Of a stretch of 64,000 bases of DNA, positions 9,019 to 52,463 are shown piece by piece. Numbering within the stretch: the stretch's first letter is position 1; each line of letters opens with the position of its first letter. The notes below the pieces were generated by a model that did not search any database, was not told the origin of the DNA, and saw nothing but the letters and a program-made list of their open reading frames with translations. The stretch covers positions 41,740-105,739 of the forward strand of contig JAXDTJ010000018.1 of the NCBI GenBank assembly GCA_034090015.1, given 5' to 3'. Source of the stretch: Paludibacteraceae bacterium. Its GTDB lineage: Bacteria; Bacteroidota; Bacteroidia; Bacteroidales; Paludibacteraceae. The position numbers and the translations under genes were made by a program.

Positions 9019-9020
9019 TT

Positions 9021-9090
9021 CCCCCTAAAATCCCTAGAAAATATAGAATCCCTAGAAAATCTAGAAAAACTAGAAAAAAAAATCCCCCCT
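9021..9090. repeat. CCCTAGAAAAT / CTAGAAAAA word tract between sulfhydrylase and lyase genes
   Basis: AATCCCTAGAAAAT x2, then CTAGAAAAA x2, bracketed by C-runs. Confidence 0.8.
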
Positions 9091-11583: not shown

Positions 11584-11671
11584 AATTAAGAATTATGAAT
11601 TAAGAATTAAGAGCGGCTTACGCCAACGGGATAACCACTGCCTCTTAATTCATAATTCTTAATTCTTAATT
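11584..11671. repeat. TTAAGAATTATGAA-word hairpin between rpmF and rluB
   Basis: Left arm AATTAAGAATTATGAATTAAGAATTAAGAG, 29-nt GC-rich loop, right arm CTCTTAATTCATAATTCTTAATTCTTAATT. Confidence 0.85.
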
Positions 11672-23263: not shown

Positions 23264-26200
23264 ATGAAAAACCGTTTATTCTTTTTATGCGTTGCCATGC
23301 TGGTGGCATGCGGCGTAACGATGGCTGACAACACTTGGTTTGAGGAGGGTCGTAACTTCTCTGCCTATTCTTTGGGTCAAGGCAAAGTGCATGTGAAGGT
23401 GCTGGTCTTTGCGAGAGGAGGTACGAATAACCACTGGGCAACGACGGGAAACGGCGGAAGCTTCGTCTATGCCTATTCCTCCGGAAATACAGTTTATGCG
23501 TTGCAGTACGAAGGCGATAATAATTACAACTGTGAGAACGACTACAAAGGTTGGGTGAAGTTTCAAGTGAAGAGCGGTACGGTGATTATTACCAATTCCT
23601 ACGGAGGCAACAACAGCACCACATACACTCCGAGCAACGGTTGGGTAAATCTATACCTATCGCGTACAGGAGAGAGCAACACCCCTACTTATTTGGAGTT
23701 CGACTGGTATCCGCCCACAGTCTTGGATAACAGGTCCTTCGACTTGAAAGCGACCATCACCGATACACGAAAGTATGGGGATACATGGACGCACACGTGG
23801 TACTTAGGCTCTTTCTCCGGCCTCTCTTTACAAGCGCCTATGCTCTATCAACCCGTGTTCTATAGCGTTGGAGAAGATGGTCAGCCGGGGCACGGACAAG
23901 TGGCTATTCCGTATGTGGTGTACCAAGAGCCGAAGAGTTACACCACCTCCACCACCGGCAATACTACCTTCATCTGCAAAGAGCGGACAGGTCAACTGCT
24001 GGCAAAGACCACCGACACGGTGCAGTATGGTTTTTCTGCCAACTTCACTGTCGTGCGCGAAGACAAGACCACCACGGTAGTAACTTCCAGCAAGGTGGAC
24101 ATCCCTGCGTTCCACCGTATCTATGATTTTAAAGCAGAACATTATGTACCGGAAGGTATGGATAGTATGTGGTATATAAAAACCAAGACCACCCTCAGTT
24201 GGAAGGTGCGGACACCCTGGGCAACCGATATCATGCCTATGGATATGTTCCAGATTCAGCGCGCCTACCATCCCGACTTCTCCGATGCCGAGACCCTCGC
24301 ACTCATCCCTTACGAGACAGGCAAGGGCACCTACCAGTGGGTGGACGACACAGAAGGGGCGATGAAAAACCTGAGAACGGATACTATTGACATGAATATC
24401 TACTATCGTGTAAACCGCGTCTCTACCACCAACTGGGGCTATGAAGGGCACGAGTGGGTGCGTACTACCGCCATCCGGAAAAACACCAGCTTAACGCATT
24501 TTGACTCCGATTATAGTAACTACCGCAAAGCAGACGATTTTCAAGAAACAAGGCGCGTGTTGTTTACATTAGAAACATTGACTGATCTAAACATGTCATA
24601 CTGTTGGGATGAGAGAGCCTCCATACGCGTACGCCGACTGGCTATCTCTGCCGTGGATACTATCATCACGGAGAGAGTATTCCCCGGCTCTATGGTGCGG
24701 CCCTTGCCCCCAGACCCCAAACGAGGCAACCCTTATTTCAGTACCCTCTACCGGTTTGACTTCGAAGATGTAGCAGACATCCCTTGTTGCCACTATGAGT
24801 ATGAGGTATATATAGACGACAGCCAAAGTCTGCTGAAGTTAGATGACTTGTACCACCGCTATCAAGAACCGCTGAAGTTAACCTCCTTAGACCTTTACTA
24901 CACCGATGCGGCTTCTATTGCTACCTTCCGCGTGTCGGACGGAGTCTATCCCGACCGTATCTTCCTGCAATGGAACCCAACATCAGGCAGCGTAGACTCC
25001 TTCTATGTATATCGGAGCACAGACCAGAGGCAAGGAGGCGAGGAGATTGCCCGCATCGCAGGACAGCACTATTATATAGACACGGATGTCGTCCCGGGCA
25101 CGGTTTACTACTATACCCTAATGGCGTCTTATCTTTGCGGCGGTACGCATCAGACGCAGTTTACCGAGCAAAAGAGAGGCAGTCTGTCGCCCTACGGATG
25201 CATCCGCGGGCGTATCACATACCCCAATGGCACCGGCAACGTCGGCGTAACAGTACGGGCTGAGGGTATAAGTGGAGATGTTGCTTCTATCACCCCCAAC
25301 TACCTCTATGCCGACTCCACACGCGTAGTATATAATAGTACGCAAGACCCCGTTTCCCTGAGCGGCGATTTCTCTATCCAGATGATGGTCAAAGACTCCG
25401 ACCTCACTATCGTTAGCGGTACCGGACACCCATTGCTATATAGCACCGATAGTACTTTCCGCCTCGAACTATCCGGCGAAACTATCCGCTTCACCATGGG
25501 CAACCAGACCAGACTACTCAGCCTACGTAACGAACACAGCCAAAACAACGATAACAACATTTTCTCCCTCACCCTCACCTACTGTGCCCACACCCAAACG
25601 GTAACCCTCTACCGCGATGAGCAACAGACCGCTACCGCCACTATCCCCCTGCACAACATCCATAGCCGCTTGCGCTTCTGCTGCCCCTACTCGCTCGCCC
25701 CCGTCTCTTCCTACGGCGTGGGCATTGATGAAGTGCGTATCTTCCACCGCGTGCTCTCACAAGACAACGTCCGCACATACTCGCGACATGCCTTGGCGGG
25801 AGACGAAAACGGACTGATACTCTACTACAAGTTCGACATGCTATCTTTATCTGATATCGCTATCCCCAATATAGCAAAGATGCAAGCCACGGACGGCAAC
25901 GGAATGATGGCAGCGAACAACGCACTCATTTGGGACAAGGCAAAAAATGATGATGATTACCGATATATCCACCTCCCGGGAGACCTCATCACGCGCTTCG
26001 AGGCACTCACCGACGAGAGCGGCAACTATGTCTTAGCGGGCATACCCTTTGCCAACGGCATTACTTACAGCCTTACCCCCACAGCCCAACACGGCACCTT
26101 CCGCTATAACGGCACATCCTCTGCTTCAGCCACCATCACGATTGGCAACACGCGCCCGGAAGCAACCGCTGTGGACTTCATGAACACCGATGCCGTGCGC

Positions 26201-29200
26201 TTCAGCGGCAGGATACTCTACGAACGCTCCACCATACCGGTGAAGGGCGTGCATTTCTTGGTGAACGGCATACTCGCCACCGATGCCACAGGCAACCCCG
26301 TCGAGACCAACGAGAGCGGTAACTTCCAGTTTGAATTGCCCAAAGCACCGATACGGGTGCAGGCTGTGAAAGACGGACACTGCTTTGCCAACGATGGATA
26401 CCTGATTCTCAACGGAGACACCCTCTTCCAACCTACCGACAACATCGATGCCATTCGCTTCTACGACCGAACGAAGGTACGCCTCATCGGGCGTATTGCC
26501 GGCGGTAACGACCAAGGACTACTCCCCTTAGGCTTCGGACTCAGCCGTAACAACCTCGGCGACCATATCTGCATGGTGCTGGAGTTAGAGGGCGACAACG
26601 CCGCGCAGATAGTCTTCGACCCCTTGGACAAGACCCTCAACCGCCTTGACACCACTATCGTCCATGCCATAGACACCACCCAACATACCGACATTTCCTT
26701 GCAGAGCAAGCGGATAATGATTTACCCCGACCCGGCTTCCGGAGAGTTCTTTGCCGACCTCTTCCCCGTGAAGTACAAAGTAACCCAACTGACCGCACAA
26801 GGCTATAGCACGCTCACCAACGAGAAGACCGCCATGCAGGTCATAGACCTCACCAACAAACTCGACAGCCAATACACCTATTATACTGACACCATTCAAG
26901 GAGGTGCGGTCTCCAGGCCGCACCAAGAGAACTATGACGAAACCATGGTGCGGTTAGGAGACCGCACCTCCTTGGCCTTCCACGACACCTTCCGACATAT
27001 CTACCATAGCCCCATCACCGTAACGCCCGTACAGAGCCTTTACGGCATGGAGGTGGGCTATTTCGGCGTCGAGCGTATCGCTGTGCAACGATGGGACGGA
27101 GAGTCGGAATCCCAGTCGGTAGCACTTGCCAAAGAAGACGGCACCTATGAATACCTCTTCGGAAAACCCATCTTCACCGAAGGCAAATACACCTTCAATA
27201 TCTACGCGCACGAGGACTATTACTATAATGGCGACCGCAACCTCGGCAAGCACGACCGCGTGATGCTCCACGAAGGCGAGGTGAAAATCTATAACGGCAT
27301 GCACTCCAACACAGAAGTGCTGACCGGGACGCTCGATAAAGACGGTGTCTGCCGCAACATGGTCCTCCGCGCGGATTATCCCACCTACACGCGCGTGGAC
27401 GAAGACGCTGCGCGAAACATACAGGTTACTGTAACCTACGAGCGTGAATCCCATACTACCGAGCCTTTGCGGGTGCTGGTATTCGCCGACCGACGAGAGG
27501 GAACAGAGGCAATATCCTCCACCACGGCAGACATCACACTCTACGATATCCTGCGCGACCCGCCCGGCTCCGGCAGTTTCGCTACACTCAGCGCAGGAGC
27601 ATCATACTCCGCATCGAAAACATGGGCGTTATCCGTCAAAGCGGGTGTCACACTCGAGTTCGAAAAAGGAGTAAAATATGCCGGATTTGTGGGAGCGGTT
27701 ACTGCCGTCCCGGGACTGCTATCAGCGCAAAACTATAACATAAACACAACCACACCATTCAGCATTCCGCTGGTGTATAATTATTCCATCAACAAAGATT
27801 ATAGTTATTCCTATTCCACCACCGAGACCATACGAACGGGTAGTGATGCCTACCATGTAGGTGCAAAAGCGGACATATTCATGGGGGCAGTGGAGAATCT
27901 CTATATATCTACTTGCCACGGTATGGCTGTGCTGGACTCGCTGACCTATCTATCGATGGCTGCGCAGAAGGAGAACGGCACCATGCGGCATATCGCTACC
28001 GCACGAAATCTACAAGGTGAACTACGCCACCTCGTGGTAGCGCCTAAACTCACCTTAGACATGGTGCAGGATGCCACTTTCTGCTACACCCAAGAGCACA
28101 TCCTCACCACCGTGATTCCCAAACTGGTAGCCCAACGCAATGCCTTGGTGCTTTGCGTGGACTCAGCGGCGGCAAGAGCAAAAGCCAATCAAGAGAAAAA
28201 GCGTATCTACTACACTACGATGAGCCCTGATAGTGCCGACTTCGCAATAACACGCGGGAAAGGGTACGACTTTGTTGACCCCGTAAATAATACCGATAAT
28301 ACACCCGAGGCGGATAAAGTAGCCGGTATCAACCGTGCCATCCTCGCTTGGACCAACCTGATAAAACAAAACGAGAAGGAGAAGGTCAATGCACAATATA
28401 CCACCGACAAAAAAACATATTCCGTGGCAGGTGGCTCTACGCTTACCTATTCCGAAACGGTAACTTACGGCAGCAAATATAACGAAATACCCTTCAACTT
28501 GGGCGGTTCTGCCGGAGCAAGCAATCTGAGCAATCTATGGGGAAACGCCATCAACAAAACCATACAGACGCTTCTACAGGTAGGTGGAAAGGCTGATTCT
28601 ATCACCATTGAGAGCGAAGCGCCGGGCAGCAAGTTCTCCTTCAGTTTGAAACCCATTGCCAATATAAGCACCCAACCAACTTACGCCGCCTCCGAACAGA
28701 AGTCGCGCACCTATGGTTATACGCTATCCCCAGACCGGTTCGGATATATGGATGTGCAAGTAATGCGCATGAAAGACACGATAAGCGATTTCTACCAAAA
28801 CGCGGAGGATACCCTTGCGTTAACAGGAGAGAAAGCCAATGGTAAACTGCAAAGTTACAGCAGTTTCATCTTCCGCCAGTTGGCAGGTGCCAGCCGCTGC
28901 CCGTGGGAGGATGCCGACTCCACACTCTTCTACCAGCCCGGCACGCCGCTGAGCATTGCCACCGCGCGCTTGGAAAACCCGCAGATAACCATCGCCCAAC
29001 GCGAGATAAGTAATGTGCCTGCCGACCAACGCGCCATCTTCCAAATCGCCCTCAACAACGAGCAGACCTACTACACGGGCATAGGTGCAGCCACCCTGCC
29101 CTTTGAACTGTCGGTTATGCCGGGTAGCAACCCCAACGGACTCAAGATAACCATAGACGGCCAACCCCTCACCTCGGATCCTTTATCCATCACTCTCCCG

Positions 29201-32200
29201 CACGGCACTACGATCCACAAGACCATAGAGGTGGAGCGCGGACAGGGTTACGACTTCGAGGACATCACGCTCCTCCTGCGCTCTACCTGCGATATCATGG
29301 AGTATGCCCTCGCCGCCTTCTCCGTCCATTTCGTACCTGCCGCCACCCCTGTCTCCATGCCTACCCCGCATGACCAATGGGTGCTTAACACGCAGTCCGC
29401 ACGCGACTCCGCAGGCTACTACCTACCCGTCTCCATCGACGGCTTCGACATCCACTCCGACGGCTTCGACCATATCGAGTTGCAGTACAAGCCCCACACC
29501 GCCTCCGATGCTGATTGGGTGAACATCTGCTCCTACTACGTCTCCGACAGCCTCTACGAGCAGGCATCGGGCACCAAGCAGCGTATCGCGGGCAGCAAGA
29601 TAGACAACATCCGTTTCTACGGCGGGCGCGACCCCATGGAGCAGGAGTACGACCTCCGTGCTATGGCGTTCGCACGCTACGGCAACGGCTTCGTTACTCG
29701 CGCCTCGGAGGTGCTCCACGGCGTGAAAGACACACGCCGACCCGAACTCTTCGGCACCCCAACGCCTGCCGACGGCATACTTTCCGTAGGCGATGTGCTC
29801 TCGCTGCGTTTCAGCGAACCCATTGCAGGAAACCTATTGGACGAGGATGTTAATTTCGAGGTGATTGGTACGGATGATGTTCTCTCACTCACCACCTCCC
29901 TCCATTTCACAGGCGAATTCTCTTGCTACGCCCGCACAAAGGTTACCCGCAACATGAACGCCCGACCCTTCACCATTGAGGCAATGATTAAACCTACCGG
30001 AAATGCAGCCTTGCAAACCATCTTCGCGCTGGACAACGAGAAAGAGCCTCTGTGGTTCGCATGGGCGGGAGACCATCTCGAAGCACAGATAGGAAAAGTG
30101 CGACTGCAATCCGCCACCGTAGAGCCTATCCTCGACTTCACACGAGTAGCACTTACCTACAACCTGGAGGACTCTATTGCCCGATTCTTTGTTGGAACAC
30201 AAGAGATTAATTATGAATTAAGAATTAAGAATTATGAGCATTCCGAGCACTCCGATAACTCCGAACACTCCGATTACTCAGCAACCAACGCGAAGCCGTC
30301 GTACCATAGTGCTGCTCAACTGATTTGGGGTAACAATGCTACTTATGATGCTCCCTTCCAAGGGGATATGTTGGAAGCACGACTATGGACGAAAGCACTC
30401 ACGCAAGCCGAGTTGGCGCGGTATAAAGACTGCCATCTGACGGGCTACGAGCGCGAACTGGTGGCATATTACCCGATGAACGAAGGGAAAGGCACTACTT
30501 GCGAGGACAAAGCCAATGGTGCCACCCTCACCCTTAACGGCACCTCGTGGGTACTGCCCGAAGGTATGTCTATCCACTTGAACGGCGCAGAGCCTATCTG
30601 TCTCAACGGCGACCTGCTCAGCCGCTCCGACATCGAAGACCTGACCCTGCTCTTCTCCTTCAAGGCAGACGAAAACCTCGCTGATACATCTGAACTCCTG
30701 CATGCAGGCAAGCATACCATGCACCTTACCTCGGATGCCTTGCTATGGAGAACCGACAGCACCGAACGCCGTGCACCGGGGGCTTTTGCAGATGCTCAGT
30801 GGCACCAGTTGGTGGTGGCTATTGACCGCACGAGGAATATAGCCTCTCTGCTTGTGGATGGCAACACACTGCTTGCCACAGCGGCTGACGACATACCCGC
30901 CTTCGCAGACAGTGTCTGGACACTGGGGCAGTCTTTCCGAGGACATATCGATGCTTTCACGCTCTTCGAACAGGCATTGCCTACCTATGTGATAGAACGC
31001 TACAACAATCTCGCACCGCAAGGAGACGAGATGGGACTTATCGCATATATGCCTTTCGGGCAGTATATCCTCCAACCCAACGGACGCTACGAGTTAGTCT
31101 ATTCGCCGGAGAACGCCCGTATCTTCCGCGATGCCGACGGGAATACGGTAGAGAAGCACCAAAAGCTGGTGATGAACAACCTCACACGCTACACCGATAA
31201 AAAGGATTTTGCACCCTTGCGTAATGGGAATGCCCGAAAGAAACTTAACTTCTCGTGGGCAAGCAATGGCGATGAACTGATGATAAACATCAACATGCCC
31301 GACCATGAGATTAACCATCGCAACCTGCTCCTGACGGTGCAGCGCGTGGAGGACCAACATGGCAACGCCATGCTCAGCCCCCACACATGGGCGGCTTATG
31401 TGCACCGGCAGCAACTGCGTTGGGACAACCCGCAGATTAACTATGAGCAACAGGTTCCTGGTTCCGAGTCTCAGGTTTCAAGTGCGCAGCCTTACACCTT
31501 CACCGCCACCATCCGCAACCACGGTGGTACTACGCGGGAGTATCATCTTAACTCCCTTCCCTCGTGGCTCACGGCGCAGCCGGCTTCCGGATTCCTTGCG
31601 CCGCTGGAGACGCAGACCATCACCTTCACTGTGGACGAAGGGCTGAACATCGGCGAATATACCGAGTATATCTACCTGACCGACGACCAACAGTTGGACG
31701 ACCGCTTGTTGCTCAACCTGCACATAAAAGCCACCTGCCCTTGGACACTCGACCAGACGGAACTCAACCGCTCCATGTCGCTAATCGGGCAGGTACAAAT
31801 ACCCGTCGAGAACGGTACAATACAAATAGATACCGACTCACAGGATATGGTGGCAGCCTTCGTTGGCGAGCAGTGCGTGGCTTTGGCTCCCGTGCGGCTG
31901 AATCAGCAGACAAAGCCGGTTACCTACATGACCATCTACGGTAACGATAGCCATGCAGGCAAGGCGCTACGCTTCCAACTCTGGCATGCCAAGAACGGCA
32001 AGGTCTATATCCTTGCCCCGAGCGAAGACATCCCCTTCCGCGCCAACGAATGTTATGGCTGCGAGGGTACACCCATCACGCTCACCGTGACCGACCGACA
32101 GGTGCAACTGCTCACGCTGCAGCCCGGGTGGAATTGGTTCAGCCTGTATCTCAAGCCCACCTATCGCTCGGACCTCACGCGCCTCTTCTGTTCATCCGAC

Positions 32201-33334
32201 GCATGGACGAACGGCGACATCATCAAGAACCCCGAAGAGCAATACTTCGCAGAATATCAGATGAATACCTCGCCAATTCGATGGTATGGTACCCTATCCA
32301 CGATACGGTACCGCAGCATTTTCTTGGCGCATGTGTCGAATCCTATTCTACTGCAGATTGAGGGCGACCGTTTGGACGATGAGGGACGCACGCTCACGCT
32401 TGAGCAGGGGTGGAACGTAATGCCCTATCTCCTGACAGAGAAGCAGTCGCTCACCGACGCCTTGGCTGACTACTACGACGATGCCTCCGAGGGCGACCTC
32501 ATCAAGAGTCGCGATGCCTTTGCTGTCTTCTCCCACGCAGGCAAGTGGGAAGGCAACCTCACATATATGCAACCCGGGCTGGGGTACATGCTCCGCCGCC
32601 TCGCACCCGACCCCTGTACCTTCACTTACTATACTTATAACCCGTTGGAACAAGGGACAGGAAGCCAGGAGTCAAGAATTAATTATGAATTAAGAATTAA
32701 GAAAAAATCGTTCGAGCGTAGCGGAGATAAGAATTATGAGGGCAACGCAAACAACGTAAACAACGCAAACAACGCAAACAACGCGCAGCCTTACACCTCT
32801 GCCACTACCATGTCGCTCATTGCCACGGTGGAATTGGAGCCGGGAGTCAAGAACCAAGAACAAAGACTAAATGGTTCCAACGATGAGATTGCAGAAACGA
32901 AGGTAATAAGTCTTTCATCCTGTGTCCTTTGTCCTTCATCCAATGAAAGCCTTACCCTCGCTGCTTATATCGGCAACAGGCTTGTGGGGGTCGGTTATCC
33001 GCAGCAGGTAGGGACAACGACAGAAGACGCTATCTTCTTCCTATCTATCGCCGATGGCGCAGAGGTGGCAAGTGGGCAGTGGCCAGTGGCCAGTGGTCAG
33101 GAGGTTAGTGGTCAGATACGCTTTGTCCTTCTCTGCAACGGCGAGCCGGTGGCACACGGCACCCAGACCTTGCCTTATCAACAAGATACGGTGGTGGGTA
33201 CCCTACGCAAACCCTATCGTATCACATTCCATACCATAGACGATATGCAAGACAAGCCGTATAAGATATTGGAAAATCAACAAATATACATTATTCGCAA
33301 TGAAAACAAATATAATATCCTTGGCGTTCATTAG
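23264..33334 (+). CDS. giant (3356 aa) secreted surface protein with FN3-like, carboxypeptidase-regulatory-like and three LamG (laminin-G_3) domains
   Basis: Signal peptide MKNRLFFLCVAMLVACGVTMA. FN3-like FLQWNPTSGSVDSFYVYRS. LamG endings IDEVRIFHRVLSQDNV, LEARLWTKALTQAEL and IDAFTLFEQALP. The frame is uninterrupted for 10 kb. Confidence 0.85.
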   Translation: MKNRLFFLCVAMLVACGVTMADNTWFEEGRNFSAYSLGQGKVHVKVLVFARGGTNNHWATTGNGGSFVYAYSSGNTVYALQYEGDNNYNCENDYKGWVKFQVKSGTVIITNSYGGNNSTTYTPSNGWVNLYLSRTGESNTPTYLEFDWYPPTVLDNRSFDLKATITDTRKYGDTWTHTWYLGSFSGLSLQAPMLYQPVFYSVGEDGQPGHGQVAIPYVVYQEPKSYTTSTTGNTTFICKERTGQLLAKTTDTVQYGFSANFTVVREDKTTTVVTSSKVDIPAFHRIYDFKAEHYVPEGMDSMWYIKTKTTLSWKVRTPWATDIMPMDMFQIQRAYHPDFSDAETLALIPYETGKGTYQWVDDTEGAMKNLRTDTIDMNIYYRVNRVSTTNWGYEGHEWVRTTAIRKNTSLTHFDSDYSNYRKADDFQETRRVLFTLETLTDLNMSYCWDERASIRVRRLAISAVDTIITERVFPGSMVRPLPPDPKRGNPYFSTLYRFDFEDVADIPCCHYEYEVYIDDSQSLLKLDDLYHRYQEPLKLTSLDLYYTDAASIATFRVSDGVYPDRIFLQWNPTSGSVDSFYVYRSTDQRQGGEEIARIAGQHYYIDTDVVPGTVYYYTLMASYLCGGTHQTQFTEQKRGSLSPYGCIRGRITYPNGTGNVGVTVRAEGISGDVASITPNYLYADSTRVVYNSTQDPVSLSGDFSIQMMVKDSDLTIVSGTGHPLLYSTDSTFRLELSGETIRFTMGNQTRLLSLRNEHSQNNDNNIFSLTLTYCAHTQTVTLYRDEQQTATATIPLHNIHSRLRFCCPYSLAPVSSYGVGIDEVRIFHRVLSQDNVRTYSRHALAGDENGLILYYKFDMLSLSDIAIPNIAKMQATDGNGMMAANNALIWDKAKNDDDYRYIHLPGDLITRFEALTDESGNYVLAGIPFANGITYSLTPTAQHGTFRYNGTSSASATITIGNTRPEATAVDFMNTDAVRFSGRILYERSTIPVKGVHFLVNGILATDATGNPVETNESGNFQFELPKAPIRVQAVKDGHCFANDGYLILNGDTLFQPTDNIDAIRFYDRTKVRLIGRIAGGNDQGLLPLGFGLSRNNLGDHICMVLELEGDNAAQIVFDPLDKTLNRLDTTIVHAIDTTQHTDISLQSKRIMIYPDPASGEFFADLFPVKYKVTQLTAQGYSTLTNEKTAMQVIDLTNKLDSQYTYYTDTIQGGAVSRPHQENYDETMVRLGDRTSLAFHDTFRHIYHSPITVTPVQSLYGMEVGYFGVERIAVQRWDGESESQSVALAKEDGTYEYLFGKPIFTEGKYTFNIYAHEDYYYNGDRNLGKHDRVMLHEGEVKIYNGMHSNTEVLTGTLDKDGVCRNMVLRADYPTYTRVDEDAARNIQVTVTYERESHTTEPLRVLVFADRREGTEAISSTTADITLYDILRDPPGSGSFATLSAGASYSASKTWALSVKAGVTLEFEKGVKYAGFVGAVTAVPGLLSAQNYNINTTTPFSIPLVYNYSINKDYSYSYSTTETIRTGSDAYHVGAKADIFMGAVENLYISTCHGMAVLDSLTYLSMAAQKENGTMRHIATARNLQGELRHLVVAPKLTLDMVQDATFCYTQEHILTTVIPKLVAQRNALVLCVDSAAARAKANQEKKRIYYTTMSPDSADFAITRGKGYDFVDPVNNTDNTPEADKVAGINRAILAWTNLIKQNEKEKVNAQYTTDKKTYSVAGGSTLTYSETVTYGSKYNEIPFNLGGSAGASNLSNLWGNAINKTIQTLLQVGGKADSITIESEAPGSKFSFSLKPIANISTQPTYAASEQKSRTYGYTLSPDRFGYMDVQVMRMKDTISDFYQNAEDTLALTGEKANGKLQSYSSFIFRQLAGASRCPWEDADSTLFYQPGTPLSIATARLENPQITIAQREISNVPADQRAIFQIALNNEQTYYTGIGAATLPFELSVMPGSNPNGLKITIDGQPLTSDPLSITLPHGTTIHKTIEVERGQGYDFEDITLLLRSTCDIMEYALAAFSVHFVPAATPVSMPTPHDQWVLNTQSARDSAGYYLPVSIDGFDIHSDGFDHIELQYKPHTASDADWVNICSYYVSDSLYEQASGTKQRIAGSKIDNIRFYGGRDPMEQEYDLRAMAFARYGNGFVTRASEVLHGVKDTRRPELFGTPTPADGILSVGDVLSLRFSEPIAGNLLDEDVNFEVIGTDDVLSLTTSLHFTGEFSCYARTKVTRNMNARPFTIEAMIKPTGNAALQTIFALDNEKEPLWFAWAGDHLEAQIGKVRLQSATVEPILDFTRVALTYNLEDSIARFFVGTQEINYELRIKNYEHSEHSDNSEHSDYSATNAKPSYHSAAQLIWGNNATYDAPFQGDMLEARLWTKALTQAELARYKDCHLTGYERELVAYYPMNEGKGTTCEDKANGATLTLNGTSWVLPEGMSIHLNGAEPICLNGDLLSRSDIEDLTLLFSFKADENLADTSELLHAGKHTMHLTSDALLWRTDSTERRAPGAFADAQWHQLVVAIDRTRNIASLLVDGNTLLATAADDIPAFADSVWTLGQSFRGHIDAFTLFEQALPTYVIERYNNLAPQGDEMGLIAYMPFGQYILQPNGRYELVYSPENARIFRDADGNTVEKHQKLVMNNLTRYTDKKDFAPLRNGNARKKLNFSWASNGDELMININMPDHEINHRNLLLTVQRVEDQHGNAMLSPHTWAAYVHRQQLRWDNPQINYEQQVPGSESQVSSAQPYTFTATIRNHGGTTREYHLNSLPSWLTAQPASGFLAPLETQTITFTVDEGLNIGEYTEYIYLTDDQQLDDRLLLNLHIKATCPWTLDQTELNRSMSLIGQVQIPVENGTIQIDTDSQDMVAAFVGEQCVALAPVRLNQQTKPVTYMTIYGNDSHAGKALRFQLWHAKNGKVYILAPSEDIPFRANECYGCEGTPITLTVTDRQVQLLTLQPGWNWFSLYLKPTYRSDLTRLFCSSDAWTNGDIIKNPEEQYFAEYQMNTSPIRWYGTLSTIRYRSIFLAHVSNPILLQIEGDRLDDEGRTLTLEQGWNVMPYLLTEKQSLTDALADYYDDASEGDLIKSRDAFAVFSHAGKWEGNLTYMQPGLGYMLRRLAPDPCTFTYYTYNPLEQGTGSQESRINYELRIKKKSFERSGDKNYEGNANNVNNANNANNAQPYTSATTMSLIATVELEPGVKNQEQRLNGSNDEIAETKVISLSSCVLCPSSNESLTLAAYIGNRLVGVGYPQQVGTTTEDAIFFLSIADGAEVASGQWPVASGQEVSGQIRFVLLCNGEPVAHGTQTLPYQQDTVVGTLRKPYRITFHTIDDMQDKPYKILENQQIYIIRNENKYNILGVH
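26897..26974. repeat. 78-nt palindromic element in-frame in giant ORF
   Basis: Arms GGAGGTGCGGTCTCCAGGCCGCACC / GGTGCGGTTAGGAGACCGCACCTCC. The left arm is identical to 62935-62959. Confidence 0.85.
30206..30280. repeat. TTAAGAATTATGA words + CACTCCGA words in-frame in giant ORF (LamG domain 2)
   Basis: ATTAATTATGAATTAAGAATTAAGAATTATGAG, then GAGCACTCCGATAACTCCGAACACTCCGATTACTC. Confidence 0.85.
32666..33115. repeat. cluster of five different word-repeat families in-frame in the giant ORF 3' region
   Basis: Five families are present: TTAAGAATT words (32675-32705); CAACGCAAA x~5 (32744-32786); AAGAACC words (32846-32865); the AAGGTAATAAGTCTTTCATCC... copy of the 58204 repeat (32897-32945); and CAGTGGC words (33070-33115). 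Confidence 0.85.
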
Positions 33335-33785
33335 CCTTCTTCTTCTGAGTTCGTGTAAGCGCGAGACGATTTTTCCTACCCACCCGCAGCCGGACTGGCA
33401 GGTGGTGAGCGATGTAGATATGCGTTATAGCATGACATTAGTAGGTGCTCTACCTGAGCACCTACTCGCCGATGCGGACACCGCAGACATCATCGCTGCC
33501 TTCGTAGTAGCCAACTCCGAGAACTCCGACACCCTCTGCTGTGGGCTCACCCATCTCACACCTATCCTCGGCAGCAACGAAAACAACAACGCCACTTACC
33601 TCCGCGCCTTCCTCTATATTACCCTGCCAACGGGGGTGAAGGAAGACTGCCGCATTTTCTTTCGCTACTACGCCACCCGCACACGCTACCTCTACCAAGC
33701 GGAAAGCACCATTCCCTTCCAATCGGATGCCATCATAGGCAACATCTCCGACCCCTACGAGATAGCCTTCGGGGAGCCGAGATGA
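33300..33785 (+). CDS. lipoprotein paralogous to the C-terminal module of the giant protein
   Basis: MKTNIISLAFISLLLLSSC lipobox. The ATG lies 35 nt inside the giant ORF. The sequence pattern SMTLVG...DIIAAFV...IPF...DPYEIAF matches two modules of the giant protein. Confidence 0.65.
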   Translation: MKTNIISLAFISLLLLSSCKRETIFPTHPQPDWQVVSDVDMRYSMTLVGALPEHLLADADTADIIAAFVVANSENSDTLCCGLTHLTPILGSNENNNATYLRAFLYITLPTGVKEDCRIFFRYYATRTRYLYQAESTIPFQSDAIIGNISDPYEIAFGEPR

Positions 33786-33786
33786 A

Positions 33787-33830
33787 AAAAGAGGGTGTGT
33801 CAGAAAGCATGACACACCCTCTTTCTTTGT
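33787..33830 (+). terminator. terminator after giant-ORF/lipoprotein pair
   Basis: Perfect 12-bp stem GAGGGTGTGTCA / TGACACACCCTC followed by TTTCTTTGTT. Confidence 0.75.
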
Positions 33831-42613: not shown

Positions 42614-42728
42614 TTTAACCTCTTTGTTTTCATCCTAATACATAAAACTATTTAGTCATCAAAAAAAACGATAGAGACACTATTGAGTATAATCATTTTT
42701 TTTAACCATAATAAATCAAATTAAAATT

Positions 42729-45700
42729 ATGAAAAAGCTATTTACAGTATGCGTTGCCTTGGTGGTTGCCATGACCATGACGGCAGAAAACATGACTTGC
42801 TCGGATGCTGCTACAGCAGCACTTGCTTTGGGCGGGGGAGTAACAGCTACTGACTCTGTTACGGTTACAGGCTATGTCTCTGTGCTTAAAGGAGATGTCT
42901 CTACCAAGTATGAAACCCCTCAACAGCAATTTTGCATGGATGACACTAAAGGCTCAAATGCAGAAACATTGCTAATTTATTGGGCGAACATTCCCGAAGA
43001 GTTTCGTGAGTCATTAACCTCCCTCAACGTTGGAGATAAAGTCTCTGTTACGGGGCTATTATGCCATTATGTAAAAAGCGGTGTTTCTATTCCGGAATTG
43101 GTGAACGGCAATGTAAAAATGCTGGAACGTAACGAAGTAGAGATTGACACGCTTGATATGACCACTTGTGAAGTCATTGCAGCGGCAGAAGCGCTGAATG
43201 CCGACGAGTATTTAGATGAGGTGATAATAGTAAGTGGTTTGGTGAGTGCGGTATCCAGTACAAGCGAAAGACAACAGACTTTTGAAATGACTTGTGACGA
43301 TAATAACAAAATTTTTCAAGCGTATAATGTTGCCGTTACAGAGCCTGTTTTTGTAGGTGATTCCGTCATTGTTGTAGGGAAAGTAAAGAACTATAATGGG
43401 ATAATAGAAGCTCACGGAGGAAAAGCATATATCACCAAAAAGGGAGAGGTGAAGCATGGACCAATCGTTGTAACCTCCAATTCGTCCTCCGGCATTTCGA
43501 ATGCATGTTTCACCGCCACTCTTGAGGACGGAACTATTTTAGGATTTTATTCCTATTTCCCTGATTTAGGTTATGACGATGATTTTGTTTTCTGTGGTGC
43601 TATTTCACAACGAACAGAACTAACCATTCCGGATAGTGTTATTTTTAACTCTATTTCTTATCCGGTGACGAAGATAGGATGCTATAATAACGGTAATCGT
43701 GCTTATCAATGTGATTTGAGCAATGCTACAAGTGTAAAATCTGTTATATTACCCTCTACGATAGCTTATATATATGATTTGCCTTCCACAGTTGAAGACC
43801 TCCATATAAATAGTGATGTAAGTTGGTATAATGGAACAAAAACACTACAAAACCTATCCAAACTCTATGTGCCTGCAGACTTGTACAATCCCATTATGGG
43901 GAATGCGAATATGAGAAACTATGTCATTATCCTCGAAGAAGGGCAAGAGCCTATCCGCATCACCATCAATATGACCACTGCCGGCGAATTTGCACAACTG
44001 CTCTTGCAACAGACCGACAATAACTGGTATCATGTGCATGAATTAACCGTAACCGGACCGCTCAATGCTAATGACCTGAATGTATTCAAACGGATGAAGC
44101 AACTACAGAAGTTGGATTTGTCTAATGCGGTGATTGCAGACATACCGAATAATTTTAATGGTGCAACCGGTTATAGAGGTAATAGTTCCGATATGAACCT
44201 ATTGGAGGAATTGTCTTTACCGAGCATAAATAACATAGGCAATTATGCATTCTCCGGATGTAAAAAACTAAAAAGCATCAGTCTTACATCGGTGAATAGC
44301 ATAGGTCAATATGCTTTCTCTTACCTTGGCGCACCGCATATTTCTTTGCCGGAAGGAACAACATCAATAGGGACCAATGCTTTTTACTACAGCAACATCA
44401 CCGGAATCGACCTACCCTCTACGCTTACTTCGATTGGGGATTATGCTTTCGCATATAGTGAATTAAAAAGCATAGAAATTCCATCACCAATTACAGATGT
44501 TAGTGCATATTGTTTTTATGAGTGCGATAGCCTGGTTTCTGTATCGTTACCGATATCCACACAACAAATCAAGTCGTATGCATTCAGCAATTGTGAAAAT
44601 TTGACTGCAATCAATCTTCAAGAACTAATCAACCTAAAGAGCATTGAGAGTTATGCGTTTAACGGATGTTATGCCTTGAAAGAGATAGAATTAGCCGGTT
44701 CCCTTCGTAACATAAATTCCGGAACTTTTGGCGGATGTTATAATATCAAGTCTGTCAAAAGCTACGCTGTAATTCCGCCTTCCGGTAATTCTACCTATTC
44801 TCTATTGGACGGATGTGATTATACGGGAGTAACCCTATATGTCCCTGCCATGTCTATTGCTGCTTATCGTGCAGCAGCCGGATGGAGTGATTTCTATACC
44901 GTACTTCCTTTGGAGGAACAAATAAACAACTTGTATATCTATGATTTTGCGACTATTGCAGATGTCTCTGAGTTTTCGACAGATTGCAATGTAACGTTGG
45001 GCTGGGAATACTTGTCGCGCAACGGTTATTCGAGTATGTTCTATGGTGCATTAACGTACAACGATACCGCTACCTTCTCTATGCACAACTATCGGCAATA
45101 TCAAGATTTAGGAAGTTCTTCGTCTTCTTATCCTTATGCCGTTAATCCTATATTTACTTCGCTCGTGGCGAATGGCCCGATGCGTGCAGATAGTGTACAA
45201 ACAACGCTTATCACAAAATCAACATACGATTGGTACTTCATTTCCTTGCCTTACGATGTGCAGGTGGCGGATATTACTTATTCCGAGGGTGCGCAGTTTG
45301 TTATTCGCAAATACTCCGGCTACAACCGTGCGCAACAGGCAGGAGCTACGTGGCAGAATCTGACGACCGATAGCGTGATGCATGCATACGAGGGGTATAT
45401 CTTGAAATGTAATTTGCAAGATGCTTCGTTTACTTTCCCTGCCATCAACAATGCCCATAAAAACAATATGTTCCAAAAGGGCGATGCCGTAGTGCCGTTG
45501 AATGAATATCTGAGCGAGTTTGAGCATAACCGCTCATGGAACTTGATAGGTAACCCATATCCATGCTGGTACGACTCGCGCTATATGGACTTCTCGGCAC
45601 CTATCAGTGTATGGAATAGGTACTATGATCGTTACGATGCATTCTCTCCCGTTGACGATTCCTTTATCTTGCAACCCTCGCAGGCATTCTTTGTACAATG

Positions 45701-46379
45701 CCCCGTTGACCAATCTTCTATTACTTTCGACCAAGAAGGTCGTCAAGATTGTTGGTACACGCGCGTAAAATCGGATAAGGCTCCCATGCGTGTGGCAGCA
45801 AACGCAAACCGAAAAGTATTCAATATCGTTATGACAAGAGATTCGATAGAGGATCATACGCGTATAGTGCTCAACGATGATGCTTTGCTCGCATACGAGT
45901 TGGATAAAGATGCTTCCAAATTGATGGCTGATAATAATGCTGCTATGTTGCTCTATAGTGTTCACGATGGTGTACGCTATGCCATCAACGAGCGTCCTAT
46001 GGACAACGGAAAGGTAAGTTTAGGTTTCTTTGCACCTGAGGAAGGAGATTTCGAACTCTCTCTCAACACAACAGAAAGTGGCAATGTTATCTTGATGGAT
46101 AGTCTCACCAATACTATGACTACTCTGACCGGCAGTTACCGTTTCCATTCCGTAGCAGGTTACCACAATACCCGTTTAACCCTTGTATTCGAAACACCCA
46201 CCGAACTCAATCGCGCGGTTATCGGCAGCGATGGAAGTCTGTTGCATCAATCGGCTCAAATCTATTCAGTGGATGGTCGATGGATAGGGAATTATTATGA
46301 TGGCTGCATCAACAACTTGAATGCAGGTATTTACCTCATTATCGGACAGGATGTTAAACGCAAAATAATTGTGAAATAA
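42729..46379 (+). CDS. BspA-type leucine-rich-repeat surface protein with T9SS type-A C-terminal domain (1216 aa)
   Basis: Signal peptide. Two N-terminal OB-like modules. LRR units of the form IGNYAFSGCKKLKSISL and IGQYAFS. The C-terminus NLNAGIYLIIGQDVKRKIIVK looks like a T9SS CTD. Confidence 0.8.
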   Translation: MKKLFTVCVALVVAMTMTAENMTCSDAATAALALGGGVTATDSVTVTGYVSVLKGDVSTKYETPQQQFCMDDTKGSNAETLLIYWANIPEEFRESLTSLNVGDKVSVTGLLCHYVKSGVSIPELVNGNVKMLERNEVEIDTLDMTTCEVIAAAEALNADEYLDEVIIVSGLVSAVSSTSERQQTFEMTCDDNNKIFQAYNVAVTEPVFVGDSVIVVGKVKNYNGIIEAHGGKAYITKKGEVKHGPIVVTSNSSSGISNACFTATLEDGTILGFYSYFPDLGYDDDFVFCGAISQRTELTIPDSVIFNSISYPVTKIGCYNNGNRAYQCDLSNATSVKSVILPSTIAYIYDLPSTVEDLHINSDVSWYNGTKTLQNLSKLYVPADLYNPIMGNANMRNYVIILEEGQEPIRITINMTTAGEFAQLLLQQTDNNWYHVHELTVTGPLNANDLNVFKRMKQLQKLDLSNAVIADIPNNFNGATGYRGNSSDMNLLEELSLPSINNIGNYAFSGCKKLKSISLTSVNSIGQYAFSYLGAPHISLPEGTTSIGTNAFYYSNITGIDLPSTLTSIGDYAFAYSELKSIEIPSPITDVSAYCFYECDSLVSVSLPISTQQIKSYAFSNCENLTAINLQELINLKSIESYAFNGCYALKEIELAGSLRNINSGTFGGCYNIKSVKSYAVIPPSGNSTYSLLDGCDYTGVTLYVPAMSIAAYRAAAGWSDFYTVLPLEEQINNLYIYDFATIADVSEFSTDCNVTLGWEYLSRNGYSSMFYGALTYNDTATFSMHNYRQYQDLGSSSSSYPYAVNPIFTSLVANGPMRADSVQTTLITKSTYDWYFISLPYDVQVADITYSEGAQFVIRKYSGYNRAQQAGATWQNLTTDSVMHAYEGYILKCNLQDASFTFPAINNAHKNNMFQKGDAVVPLNEYLSEFEHNRSWNLIGNPYPCWYDSRYMDFSAPISVWNRYYDRYDAFSPVDDSFILQPSQAFFVQCPVDQSSITFDQEGRQDCWYTRVKSDKAPMRVAANANRKVFNIVMTRDSIEDHTRIVLNDDALLAYELDKDASKLMADNNAAMLLYSVHDGVRYAINERPMDNGKVSLGFFAPEEGDFELSLNTTESGNVILMDSLTNTMTTLTGSYRFHSVAGYHNTRLTLVFETPTELNRAVIGSDGSLLHQSAQIYSVDGRWIGNYYDGCINNLNAGIYLIIGQDVKRKIIVK

Positions 46380-49300
46380 TGAAAAAGGTATTTATTGCAC
46401 TATGTCTTCTATGCCTTTATGTAGTTGCATGGGGACAGATTGGTGGCGACTACGATCCCGAGAGTCCTTCCGACCCCGGCACACCGGTGAAGACATACGC
46501 GCTGACGCTCAATGCCACTCCCTCCAACGGCGGTAGTTTCAACACTACTGCAGTCCGTCTGGAAAGCGGAGAAACATACACGATACGAGCATATCCCAAC
46601 ACTGACTATAGGTTCATAGCATGGTTGTGCGAGGGGGATACGCTGTCGAAATCAACAGGCTACACCTACACTATGCCGGCGCACGATGTAAGAATTACCG
46701 GCGTGTTTGAGTATCATCCTGTCTCACCCTCAGACCCGCAACAGCCCGATACCACACGAAAATATCAGTTATTCATAAGCGCCAGTCCCGCGAATGGCGG
46801 TAGTTTCAATATCAGCAACGCCAAAGTGGCAGAAGGCAGTCATAACCAATTGCAGGCGTATTCCAATACAGACTTTGTGTTCAAACATTGGATAATGGGT
46901 GATTCCGTACTATCCACAGCCCAAAGTCTCGATTTCGTGATGCCGAAGCATGATGTACGGTTGGCGGGGGTATTTGAATACAATCCCGGTAACCCGGGAG
47001 ATCCCAATACCAATCCGTGGAATGCAGCAACGGGGGAAGTGATTATAGATGATTTTGTCCCGGGCTATCTACGCAACGCCATCTCTTCCGCTACTGGCAA
47101 CAACAGCAGTGCGGTGCTATCCATTATGGTGGTGGGTATCATGAATAGTTATGATTTTGAAGCCTTTAGCCGCTATAGCAACTGCGCGAACTTGGACTTA
47201 AGTCGTGTGTCGGGCATCACGACGGTACCTTCAAACGCGTTCTCAGCTTCTAACTTCAACCGTGTGGTACTGCCGGCTACCATTGAGTCGTTGGGTTACC
47301 GCTCTTTTGCCAATTGCGCCAACCTCACAAGCATTGTGCTGTATGCTATGACTCCGCCTACGCTCAACACAGACGTATTCAGCGGTGTCTCCGATGGGTT
47401 GCTTGTATATGTGCCGGCAGCGGCGATCCCGCAGTATCAAAATGAAACAGCATGGAGCGGCTTCACCCTATTGCCTATACAAGAAGATATTCTCAATCTG
47501 GAGGTTTCGTTACCGGAAGATGCCGACATTGCCGATTTCACCAATATGTGGTTGGAACTCACCAATACGAAGAACGGTCAGCGGATACATTACGTGATGA
47601 CAGATCGACGCTCCTACACCTTTGCCAACATCATCCGAAATACCACATGGAATGTTACCCTTCGAAACGAAAGGGGGGATGTCTTCGGACAAATACTCAA
47701 TGTGCAGGCACAAGATGAGGATATCAGTGTTTCGTTTACCTCATTATTGAAGCCGCAAAACCTGTCGTTGCGGGTGCTTACTCCCGACAGCGTGGATATT
47801 ACGGAGCAAGTCCAAGTGGTATGGACGGATAGCAAGGGCAATTATCTGGCACAAGCCCGTTCGCTGGTAGGTTTGCCGACGGGATATAGTGCTACCTACA
47901 CGGTTTCTCTGCCGCAACGTCTTGCCATGGTGTATGCTACGCCGCCTTCGGCTACCTGCGTCTTGACTGATGAGAGCAATGAGGTATTTTGTCGGCTATG
48001 CGCCATTCCAAATGTGCATATCTCGGGAACGGTTACCGATGCTTCAACGGGGCTGCCTATGTGCAATGCCACGGTGAGTGCATCGCAAACTTTCGCGGGC
48101 AAGTATAGCAAGACGTTAGGGACGCAAACGGATGCTAAGGGTGTTTACACGCTGGATATAGCCAATGTCCCCACGTCGTTATCGGTTTCCGCATCCAACT
48201 ATGTCAGCCAATCGTGCCGATGCGACTCACTGCTGTCGGGGCAGGATACCGTTGCTATACCCGTTTTTGCGCTACGAACAATCTCGGGTGCTACTATCGC
48301 ACTCGGATTTACCTACACCGATTTAGATGGCAACAGCCAAAACTGGTATCGCGACTACAACAATATAGACTACTCTATCTTCAATCTCACTACCGGAAAA
48401 GCAATTGACCGCTACACGCTGCAGTATCCCCAGATAGTGATTACGGAAGAGGTTGCCGATGGAGACCTGTTGCGCCTGACTGTCACGAGCAGAACCGGCT
48501 CTTTCATGCCGGTTAGTGTGGTGGATACTCTTGCCGACCAAAAAGCAACTGCCACGTTTGATATAGTGGCGTTGGGACGCATCGAATCGTCCTTTGCTTC
48601 TTCCAAAAACTCTACCGTAGCGGGCATTCTGTACGACAGCAACGGGAAATGGATGAATACATACGAATATACCTCCGGCAAGTTGTCGGTCAGCAATCTT
48701 CCCGATGGGCGTTATATCTTGGTAAGCATGGGCAGTAGCCGATTCTTCAATACGATTTATGATTTGGCGAAACTGCCACAAACAGGGCTGGTAAAGGGAG
48801 TGGATTACGTGGAGGACACAGCTGTGGTACGTAGCGGGGAGATAACCACGATTGCAATTAGCGAAGTGCCGACATTGGACGAAAGCAAACTATACTACAC
48901 AGGGGACAAAACCCAGTTCTCTGTGAACAAACCCAGCATTGTGGTGGGCAACTATCTCACCCTCTCGGGTACGATTGATTTCAAGCCGACCTATTCCCAA
49001 AGTGTCAGCAATGTACAGATGATAATAGACCTGCCCGAATCCTGTGAGTTTGTCAGCAACTCTGTGATGATCGGTACGAGTATCGGCAACTATACACTTA
49101 ATGGAAGTCAACTCACCATTCCGCTGATGCACTATACGGATCGGGTGCGTTTCTGCGTTATCCCCACCGAGGGAGGCGACTGTGCGCCGACGGCTTTTGT
49201 ACAGTTTGATCTACAGGGAACATCTATTATGCAACCCATTGGTTCGGCACACGTATCGGTGCAAGATTTGTCTGTTTCCGTTCCTTCTACGGTTGCCAAT

Positions 49301-52300: not shown

Positions 52301-52351
52301 ATCCGGAAGGGAAATAGAACCTATAATCTATTGGGAAATGAAGTTAGGTAA
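46379..52351 (+). CDS. giant (1990 aa) surface protein: Listeria-Bacteroides-type repeats, BspA-LRR blocks, carboxypeptidase-regulatory-like domains
   Basis: The start overlaps the upstream stop (TAATG). Signal peptide MKKVFIALCLLCLYVVAWGQ. Two N-terminal GGSFN...F.HW...V.GVFEY repeats and a third, divergent copy near the C-terminus. LRR blocks at both ends. Confidence 0.8.
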   Translation: MKKVFIALCLLCLYVVAWGQIGGDYDPESPSDPGTPVKTYALTLNATPSNGGSFNTTAVRLESGETYTIRAYPNTDYRFIAWLCEGDTLSKSTGYTYTMPAHDVRITGVFEYHPVSPSDPQQPDTTRKYQLFISASPANGGSFNISNAKVAEGSHNQLQAYSNTDFVFKHWIMGDSVLSTAQSLDFVMPKHDVRLAGVFEYNPGNPGDPNTNPWNAATGEVIIDDFVPGYLRNAISSATGNNSSAVLSIMVVGIMNSYDFEAFSRYSNCANLDLSRVSGITTVPSNAFSASNFNRVVLPATIESLGYRSFANCANLTSIVLYAMTPPTLNTDVFSGVSDGLLVYVPAAAIPQYQNETAWSGFTLLPIQEDILNLEVSLPEDADIADFTNMWLELTNTKNGQRIHYVMTDRRSYTFANIIRNTTWNVTLRNERGDVFGQILNVQAQDEDISVSFTSLLKPQNLSLRVLTPDSVDITEQVQVVWTDSKGNYLAQARSLVGLPTGYSATYTVSLPQRLAMVYATPPSATCVLTDESNEVFCRLCAIPNVHISGTVTDASTGLPMCNATVSASQTFAGKYSKTLGTQTDAKGVYTLDIANVPTSLSVSASNYVSQSCRCDSLLSGQDTVAIPVFALRTISGATIALGFTYTDLDGNSQNWYRDYNNIDYSIFNLTTGKAIDRYTLQYPQIVITEEVADGDLLRLTVTSRTGSFMPVSVVDTLADQKATATFDIVALGRIESSFASSKNSTVAGILYDSNGKWMNTYEYTSGKLSVSNLPDGRYILVSMGSSRFFNTIYDLAKLPQTGLVKGVDYVEDTAVVRSGEITTIAISEVPTLDESKLYYTGDKTQFSVNKPSIVVGNYLTLSGTIDFKPTYSQSVSNVQMIIDLPESCEFVSNSVMIGTSIGNYTLNGSQLTIPLMHYTDRVRFCVIPTEGGDCAPTAFVQFDLQGTSIMQPIGSAHVSVQDLSVSVPSTVANPSIPVSGTAVGVCDIEIFDGNVLIGQTKSLANGTWATTYELSDASNLSVHAIHAKVTTQTGVQLISESKNCVYDMNAIELIKVTMYHMNPEKNMQTAVYNFQNPSVTPNKWTVYYPNKAFTYTIEFTNNSPTKVSNVVLYVHTADNEKLPFAATYNSEKDFWYVNCNLGNKSDQHYPINVSVSYTAITELDSMATLSIFEETIKKQDDYNIEITNVSADEDYYYTDYIHNGSNVGLISNFSTIDTLPCSITPMVDTVFDNFSIYSDIDYVSNTLNVYIPKLSLTYLSDITDTILIQYLEWADEICTSNFLRFAIKVENRSTSTNNIRFRAPLQNYLRRSLYFTEQILGAYDSYLMEREVRERLEQLADLSNRLDKLDCMDESIKDDIRDNINRLFEQYFDIKETSNLMQDMDNEFTSPLYAINFAGGWLEFAAEIGFATRRRQISNFIAVFENACPPPFEGNDGGDYTPYNPDDEVQIDPSGYVYEGVSSNRLEGVTATIYYKEMVEDMYGDLHENIVKWDAEAYAQENPLFTDENGLYAWDVPQGLWQVKFEKQGYETTHSDWLPVPPPQLDVNVAMKQNVQPMVRKAGAYEDAVEVEFDKYMLPEQLNTDNIIVMQGDSMVAGTIQLLDEEVSYAQSDISYASKVRFQAAAPFSEPIVTLIVSNRVKSYAGVRMQDNYSQTFAVEQEIKQILCDSVKKVGYCKSTTLSVQVLPATAAARKVLRAQSSSDMMVSLQTTEATIDNNGRAVFTLSGNLPGTAAILFDIEGTDKTAQTMVNVVPVAQLIPTITVVSADTLRGTVHIDQKVNEDSIAVISATPLFGYHFTHWNDGNTDNPRTIKLAGDSTLVASFDLTRFGLCGDALYWEYSDSVVMVTGAGEMYHFTATTMPWLLLRDSITTISISREATTIGEAAFYGSNKVDTIFSYALVPPICGDSCFYLVPQEAQVFVPNGSLEAYKAAEGWRYFFHISEMEKMPETELEQTEFYQCITKYVRNGVLYIRKGNRTYNLLGNEVR

Positions 52352-52408: not shown

Positions 52409-52463
52409 CGCACCAAAAGAAATAATGTATCAACAAATTTATTAACCTTTTCATCAAAAAAGT

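Follow-up and report, generated by a model that had tools for sequence, protein, structure and literature searches.

Giant secreted proteins of the Bacteroidota are mostly uncharacterised, and the means by which they are retained at the cell is known for few, either through anionic lipopolysaccharide (A-LPS) or through PorP-like partners. In two systems of the latter kind, SprB/SprF and PG1035/PorP, the partner genes are adjacent. The locus described here belongs to a Paludibacteraceae bacterium (GenBank assembly GCA_034090015.1, contig JAXDTJ010000018.1, positions 41,740 to 105,739; this whole stretch of 64,000 nucleotides (nt) is referred to below as the window) and joins the gene for a giant protein of 3,356 amino acids (aa) to that for a small predicted lipoprotein. 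The two genes overlap, their pairing is old and extends beyond close relatives to many Bacteroidota-type genomes and metagenome contigs, and profile comparison relates the lipoprotein by homology to two of the giant protein's modules, for which we use the name domain X.

The closest described cases come from type IX secretion (T9SS). Among type B cargo, SprF binds SprB and PorP binds PG1035, and the cargo is kept on the surface by a PorP-like outer-membrane protein (PMC9143113). These systems are like the present one in combining a very large secreted surface protein with a dedicated outer-membrane partner thought to retain it, but PorP and SprF are outer-membrane beta-barrels and serve cargo whose C-terminal domain (CTD) is of type B. 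The window's partner is a 161-aa lipoprotein, a predicted beta-sandwich homologous to a cargo domain, and the orthologues of the window's giant protein end either in a CTD of type A or in a short tag that is unclassified. With a partner of this kind, and with no type B CTD found on the window giant by Pfam or NCBIfam models, the pair falls outside the PorP/SprF type. Type A cargo, in the account given by the same source, is anchored through A-LPS after removal of the CTD (PMC9143113). Giant orthologues with Por_Secre_tail or FlgD_ig sorting domains resemble such cargo, whereas the pathway as that account describes it includes no lipoprotein partner bearing a cargo-like domain.

Type V pili differ in other respects. 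The window pair gives no hint of subunits that polymerise or exchange strands, its giant member forms one chain of ~3,350 aa, and neither protein matches a FimA- or Mfa-type family in Pfam, which leaves the lipoprotein outside the type V pilus anchors. The anchors in question, FimB and Mfa2, are lipoproteins that have the fold of the shaft subunit and are encoded after the shaft gene. They form the basal anchors of the type V pili of Porphyromonas gingivalis (PMC8512630), and the likeness lies in a basal component that anchors a long surface structure. As for the Sus system, the window pair lies in no polysaccharide-utilisation locus, has no canonical export signal, and gives no sequence or fold match to SusE or SusF. 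Those two proteins are surface glycan-binding lipoproteins composed of one or several beta-sandwich modules.

The overlapping gene pair

Among the 441 open reading frames (ORFs) listed for the window, the giant one occupies 23264..33334 (+) and begins with ATG. A second ATG-initiated ORF, of 161 aa, follows at 33300..33785 (+) in a different frame, and the two share 35 nt (33300..33334 (+)). In the giant frame this stretch ends ...IIRNENKYNILGVH and the stop codon, closing a short C-terminal tag with NENKYNILGVH, and in the lipoprotein frame it opens MKTNIISLAFIS..., the signal peptide beginning MKTNIISLAFI. A dual-coded overlap of this length, with the lipoprotein ATG at 33300 inside the giant ORF, had been put forward in a first-pass annotation of the sequence and is borne out by the ORF list and both translations. 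The ATG is made across the giant's Asn-Glu codons, AAT GAA, and is the sole ATG 5' of the lipobox cysteine (Cys19). The sole alternative start, a TTG at codon 8, also lies within the giant ORF and, as read from the sequence, would leave the signal peptide without a charged n-region.

There is room for neither a promoter nor a terminator between the two genes, and a terminator scan placed a terminator-like hairpin (33788 to 33824 or 33834 (+); a 15-bp stem with a T-rich tail) 3 nt past the lipoprotein stop codon. Since the lipoprotein start lies within the tag, the intergenic space is nil, and a hairpin follows the second gene, both genes very probably share one mRNA; their co-transcription is close to certain, and the giant and lipoprotein genes together form a conserved two-gene operon closed by the hairpin. 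The first-pass annotation also took the two to be translationally linked, and coupling across the 35-nt overlap may occur.

The second ORF begins as expected of a lipoprotein: its n-region is charged, a hydrophobic core follows, and the lipobox closes with a Cys (MKTNIISLAFISLLLLSS followed by Cys; lipobox LLSS/C, with signal peptide and lipobox together at 33300-33356). Cys19 is invariant in alignments of 22, 22 and 52 sequences. The mature protein consists of a single domain X (aa ~28-157, nt 33381-33770), and no Pfam or NCBIfam model matches it. The same sequence is on record as MDY2942472.1, a "hypothetical protein" encoded in a Paludibacteraceae metagenome-assembled genome.

Domain X in the lipoprotein and the giant protein

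Direct BLASTP comparison of the lipoprotein with the giant protein gives weak scores (at giant residues 3298-3322, E 3e-4 over 25 aa; at 2829-2867, E 0.072), as is the profile of the narrow lipoprotein family (at least 57% identity), which reaches 9 bits and an hhalign probability of 80%. The bridge between the two is a more distant locus, L003, where P0045, a protein 37% identical to the giant's C-terminal region, is followed by the gene for a 157-aa lipoprotein. This lipoprotein is 33% identical to that of the window (E 3e-21) and aligns over the whole domain with aa 2827-2945 of the window giant (28% identity over 121 aa, E 1e-6). A profile of the correspondingly widened family (A2) scores 23.3 bits on giant aa 2827-2943. 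At L003 itself (6772-9386), the giant homologue is frameshifted just 5' of its T9SS sorting domain, with the frame resuming at 9174-9386 and ending ...TVKLIKQ; its upstream part is called as several genes, and the copy may be a pseudogene or an assembly error.

The homology was established with two profiles, each searched against all 441 window ORFs: one built from 52 stand-alone lipoproteins with no giant sequence, the other from 14 giant-protein modules with no lipoprotein. The lipoprotein profile matches an inner copy of domain X in the giant protein (X_N; 31742..32092 (+), aa 2827-2943) with 44.8 bits and an independent E-value of 2.2e-13, and the terminal copy (X_C) over aa 3221-3324 with 15.4 bits (2.8e-4). 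X_C as a whole, which contains low-complexity loop insertions, extends over 32780..33235 (+) (aa ~3173-3324) and scores 86.3 bits with the module profile. In the opposite direction, the module profile matches the lipoprotein with 24.5 bits (E 1.9e-7) and no further window ORF apart from the giant one. Finally, hhalign aligned the lipoprotein family with the 14 giant modules over the whole domain (114 columns) at 98.0% probability (E 2e-13). Significant in both directions, these comparisons show that the window lipoprotein and the giant protein's two modules are homologous.

The three segments aligned by eye in the first-pass annotation are the same ones that the profiles picked independently, its giant segments of 31735-32095 and 32786-33229 agreeing with the profile-defined bounds of X_N and X_C. 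That annotation had further described the lipoprotein as a free-standing copy of the giant's C-terminal module. The homology in this description holds, and the lipoprotein matches both X copies, but the inner copy is the nearer of the two, and the family to which it belongs is too old and large for it to be a recent copy of the giant's own module. An origin by recent tandem duplication of that module was accordingly rejected, because stand-alone members form a large and ancient family and the lipoprotein's scores against other lipoproteins far exceed those against the modules of its neighbour.

The extent of this family became apparent from a search with the lipoprotein-family profile through 1.84 billion cluster representatives, of which 2,348 carry domain X at E <=0.001, 654 at <=1e-10 and 32 at <=1e-30. 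The matches fall into three groups: stand-alone proteins of 140-180 aa, proteins of ~270-500 aa with two to five tandem copies, and large carriers of up to 4,752 aa with two to seven matched stretches. Judged by eye, a lipobox-type Cys is present in all 32 of the stand-alone and tandem-copy proteins that were fetched. Giant proteins were found library-wide by the lipoprotein profile (E down to 1e-41); the large carriers include some with Por_Secre_tail, FlgD_ig or CHU_C sorting domains, and domain X also occurs alongside cadherin, FG-GAP, Big_5 and InlB B-repeat domains.

An initial AlphaFold2 run on a narrow alignment gave a mean predicted local distance difference test score (pLDDT) of 60.6 and was replaced by one on the 52-sequence alignment, which predicts a beta-sandwich (pLDDT 90.3; predicted template modelling score, pTM, 0.80). 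A Foldseek search of the PDB returned no match at E <=0.001, the best being transthyretin-like TTR-52 (E 0.042), and the only fold match in BFVD was an uncharacterised marine-virus protein. Likewise, the PDB contained no match to the domain X lipoprotein by profile or sequence search, no Pfam or NCBIfam model covers the domain, and a literature search found no description of domain X, the giant family or the gene pair. Domain X is thus an undescribed beta-sandwich domain, with an old and large family of lipoproteins bearing one to five copies.

Two stretches of the lipoprotein, the first of them conserved, deserve mention. The sequence D-(S/T)-(A/I/L/V/M/T) is the general O-glycosylation site of Bacteroidetes, and ADTAD (33471-33485, aa 58-62) and DTL (33525-33533, aa 76-78) fit this motif. 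Variable loop insertions in relatives, rich in Ser, Asn and Gly, adjoin both stretches.

The remainder of the giant protein consists of a Sec-type signal peptide at the N-terminus (MKNRLFFLCVAMLVACGVTMA, judged by eye), three stretches of the LamG-type, concanavalin-like lectin domain Laminin_G_3 (Pfam PF13385; best stretch 25361..25771 (+), aa 700-836, E 8.2e-15) and some weak Ig-like matches, with nothing else recognised by Pfam. Between the two X copies lies a middle region (approximately 32111..32758 (+)) made up of two GWNW/GWNV units and a variable low-complexity linker, and X_C is followed by the short tag HTIDDMQDKPYKILENQQIYIIRNENKYNILGVH and the stop codon (33236..33334 (+)), in the place where many orthologues have a T9SS type A sorting domain. 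The order X-(GWNW)2-X is also found in the distant proteins P0044-P0049 and P0051-P0052. The variable linkers of the giant gene contain two in-frame runs of an AT-rich heptamer, (AATTA[AT]G)n, at 30209-30238 and 32681-32703, translated as NYELRIK; the repeat is not confined to the giant gene, for it recurs as an inverted repeat at 11584-11671 and again at 56335-56364, for 9 matches against 0 expected in shuffles.

Conservation of the pair and of the tag junction

The pairing of giant and lipoprotein genes, for which synteny is the natural check, proved to be old. A genome scan returned 24 loci, 21 of which were parsed automatically, and in every one of these 21 an upstream open ORF of >1,250 aa with two X copies ends between -35 and +48 nt from the lipoprotein ATG. 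Several of the bins in this set (L011, L013, L015, L018, L019, L023 and L028) are titled Azospirillum, Acutalibacteraceae, Firmicutes, Flexilinea, Mycobacteriaceae, Dialister or Clostridium; as carriers of a Bacteroidales-type locus, they are probably mislabelled or contaminated. Metagenomes were scanned with the alignment of a separate lipoprotein subfamily, ~27-30% identical to the window lipoprotein, since the 52-sequence alignment had no suitable conserved stretch. Of 80 loci, 47 had at least 1.5 kb upstream, and the pairing is kept in 37 of these: 19 lipoprotein genes are directly adjacent to an X-bearing upstream ORF (-38 to +43 nt), and 18 are separated from one by a gap of 0.9-1.6 kb. 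In the sole gapped locus that was read, L040, the gap is occupied by one gene, for a 417-aa secreted leucine-rich repeat (LRR) protein.

The same arrangement was encountered among distant relatives. Seven distant X-lipoproteins were looked up, two- and four-copy forms included; in five cases a LamG giant of 3,179-3,238 aa ends 4-92 nt upstream of the lipoprotein gene, and the other two, on short contigs, come right after the end of an upstream ORF. Four of the distant giants are collinear with that of the window (26-29% identity over ~2,650 aa), and X copies are present in all of the distant upstream ORFs long enough for testing. The pairing persists whichever sorting tail the giant protein bears, type A CTD or short tag. 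Its conservation so far beyond close relatives supports the proposal of the first-pass annotation that the two genes are functionally linked.

The overlap itself has a different distribution. T9SS type A cargo is recognised by a C-terminal domain of ~70-100 aa (Por_Secre_tail, PF18962, or TIGR04183), whereas the tail of the window giant is only ~32 aa long, and its last 100 aa match no T9SS model in Pfam or NCBIfam even at E up to 10. Orthologous giants end ...KTIRLIKQK or carry Por_Secre_tail. Two clades have the short tag, that of the window (L006-L008, L010 and L122) and a diverged rumen-type clade, with ends reading ...IIRNENKYNILGVH or ...IIRNNEKYDVTGKKL. In both, the downstream ATG lies in the Asn-Glu codons of the tag, so that the genes overlap by 32, 35 or 38 nt. 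Where orthologues carry a T9SS sorting domain, the genes are 2-48 nt apart or share only 4 nt. It is thus the tag, and not the partnership, that the overlap accompanies.

A comparison of the window with L122 is also informative. Within the overlap, the tag has undergone two silent changes (Tyr TAT to TAC and Gly GGC to GGT) and one conservative change (Val to Ile), while the signal peptide has been altered from Ile to Thr and from Ala to Val, and of the two readings the tag thus seems to be under the stronger constraint. Furthermore, the ATG in the tag's Asn-Glu codons at L040 starts the LRR protein situated between giant and X-lipoprotein (4583-5836), which itself bears the same tag, so that the junction belongs to the tag and not to the lipoprotein. 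At the giant ORF ends of L039 and L044, the tag ATG likewise starts a different downstream gene. Taken as a whole, the junction of tag and signal peptide behaves like a reusable cassette.

Elsewhere in the window, the same kind of tag terminates a 1,997-aa secreted-type protein with InlB B-repeat, LRR_5 and CarbopepD_reg_2 domains (46358-52351; ...KYVRNGVLYIRKGNRTYNLLGNEVR) and an 808-aa BspA-type LRR protein (52446-54872; ...RIVRDGKVLVYSNGKWYDMLGNIVE). No T9SS model of Pfam or NCBIfam matches either tag, and the tag, being unrecognised by these models, may represent a sorting signal that is as yet unclassified. A pairing of the lipoprotein with the short tag, and not with the giant family, was considered and rejected, because these two tag-bearing genes have no X-lipoprotein and CTD-bearing orthologues of the giant keep theirs. 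A neighbouring gene (42693-46379) encodes a 1,228-aa BspA-type LRR protein that ends in a weak match to Por_Secre_tail, below threshold at 13.5 bits where 23 are required, and its stop codon overlaps the next ATG by 1 nt (TAATG) at 46379. With this weak Por_Secre_tail end beside tag-bearing neighbours, CTD-like and short-tag tails coexist in one gene array.

The pair is flanked by housekeeping genes, with those for a dihydroorotate dehydrogenase and an acyltransferase upstream and agmatinase-type and polyamine genes downstream. At some distant loci, additional genes directly follow the X-lipoprotein: an OmpA-family protein and an OMP_b-brl_2 barrel at L110 (9499-11647), and, at L119 (641-1270) and L120 (6423-7121), unannotated proteins that have signal peptides and are 209 and 232 aa long, respectively. 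In the window, the terminator stands in their position.

Roles proposed for the lipoprotein

Because the pair is conserved and its members share domain X, the two proteins probably work together at the outer membrane. The lipoprotein would be the giant's dedicated partner, held in the outer membrane by its lipid, and would bind the X-containing C-terminal region of the giant through like-with-like contacts between beta-sandwiches. The C-terminal end of the giant protein would thereby be kept at the outer membrane, the lipoprotein serving as an anchor or as a platform for assembly. The overlap would serve co-expression and would exist because the conserved AAT GAA of the tag supplies an ATG. 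The OmpA-family and outer-membrane beta-barrel genes after the lipoprotein at L110 would fit an envelope-anchoring assembly, and SprF with SprB, PorP with PG1035 and the pilus anchors FimB and Mfa2 set precedents for surface cargo that has a partner of its own. On these grounds, a dedicated outer-membrane partner acting through X-X contacts is tentatively preferred, at a little short of an even chance. The more specific proposal that X-lipoproteins are dedicated outer-membrane receptors of a conserved giant of ~3,200-3,400 aa, recognised by homotypic pairing of X domains, is at present rather doubtful.

Several observations weigh against a partnership of this kind. Ten of the 47 metagenome loci have no X-bearing upstream ORF, four of them with ~6 kb of upstream sequence, and one lipoprotein gene (L057) is truly unlinked, its upstream genes being translation genes on the opposite strand. 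At L001 and L002, X copies are present in the C-terminus of the giant homologue and no X-lipoprotein lies within 15 kb, and the number of X copies per lipoprotein ranges from one to five with no matching change in the giant. Exposure of the lipoprotein at the surface is open to question as well. The surface-export signal of Bacteroidota lipoproteins is K-(D/E)2 or Q-A-(D/E)2 directly after the Cys (PMC5080379). The K-(D/E)2 form is not seen in the window lipoprotein, which reads C-K-R-E-T, and two or more acidic residues at +2 to +6 occur in only 16 of 71 distinct family contexts. With no canonical signal, surface exposure is doubtful, the protein may face the periplasm, and the cell-surface docking of the giant protein that the first-pass annotation offered as an example is conjectural. 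Finally, orthologues with a type A CTD would already be anchored through A-LPS, and an extra anchor is not obviously needed.

A periplasmic orientation leads to the first alternative, in which the lipoprotein is located at the outer membrane's inner face and encounters the giant protein solely during its passage. The lipoprotein would hold or present the C-terminal X region by the translocon, as a cargo-specific chaperone or targeting factor and not as a surface anchor. The canonical export signal is absent from most relatives as it is from the window lipoprotein, the orthologous giants with type A sorting domains must cross the periplasm as very large cargo, and tight operon linkage would suit a dedicated helper. 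That linkage, however, is equally compatible with an anchor, no likeness to a known T9SS component was found, and lipoproteins with four or five tandem copies look more like extended surface or structural proteins than like chaperones. An export helper of this kind is therefore a credible but rather unlikely explanation.

Alternatively, domain X may be a beta-sandwich that binds a ligand, be it a glycan, a host surface or another cell, and that the two proteins use separately, with the genes co-regulated because of a common target and not because of protein contact. Such a module would resemble surface glycan-binding lipoproteins of the SusE/SusF type. Its presence in many unrelated architectures is typical of a general binding or spacer module, and the existence of lipoproteins with two to five tandem copies, together with X-lipoproteins unlinked to any giant gene, points the same way. 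Yet co-regulation does not usually call for so tight a pairing, which ties the lipoprotein to one family of collinear giants across deep divergence, the window flanks hold no SusC/SusD or glycan-use genes near the pair, and the canonical surface-export signal is again missing. Independent use of the module is, on balance, unlikely. That the small ORF is spurious or mis-started, and its similarity and overlap accidental, might be suggested by the weak BLASTP and narrow-profile scores but is highly improbable given that, over a range of 27-97% identity, the ORF stays a lipoprotein and its Cys does not vary, and given the reciprocal profile matches, the confident structure prediction (pLDDT 90.3), the 2,348 library matches and the recurring synteny.

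A dedicated partner for surface cargo is a known idea; what would be new is a lipoprotein in this role that has a domain in common with the cargo. What has been defined here is a giant protein family that is collinear across deeply diverged contigs, an unannotated beta-sandwich domain, and a near-obligate lipoprotein partner. The recurrent ATG in the tag provides a clean natural case of a conserved dual-coding junction, in which one nucleotide change silent in the giant protein would abolish the lipoprotein start. If the lipoprotein is indeed a receptor for the giant protein, it would represent a third route of retention for T9SS-type cargo, beside A-LPS and PorP-like barrels, and would give a first function to a domain family with more than 2,000 cluster representatives.

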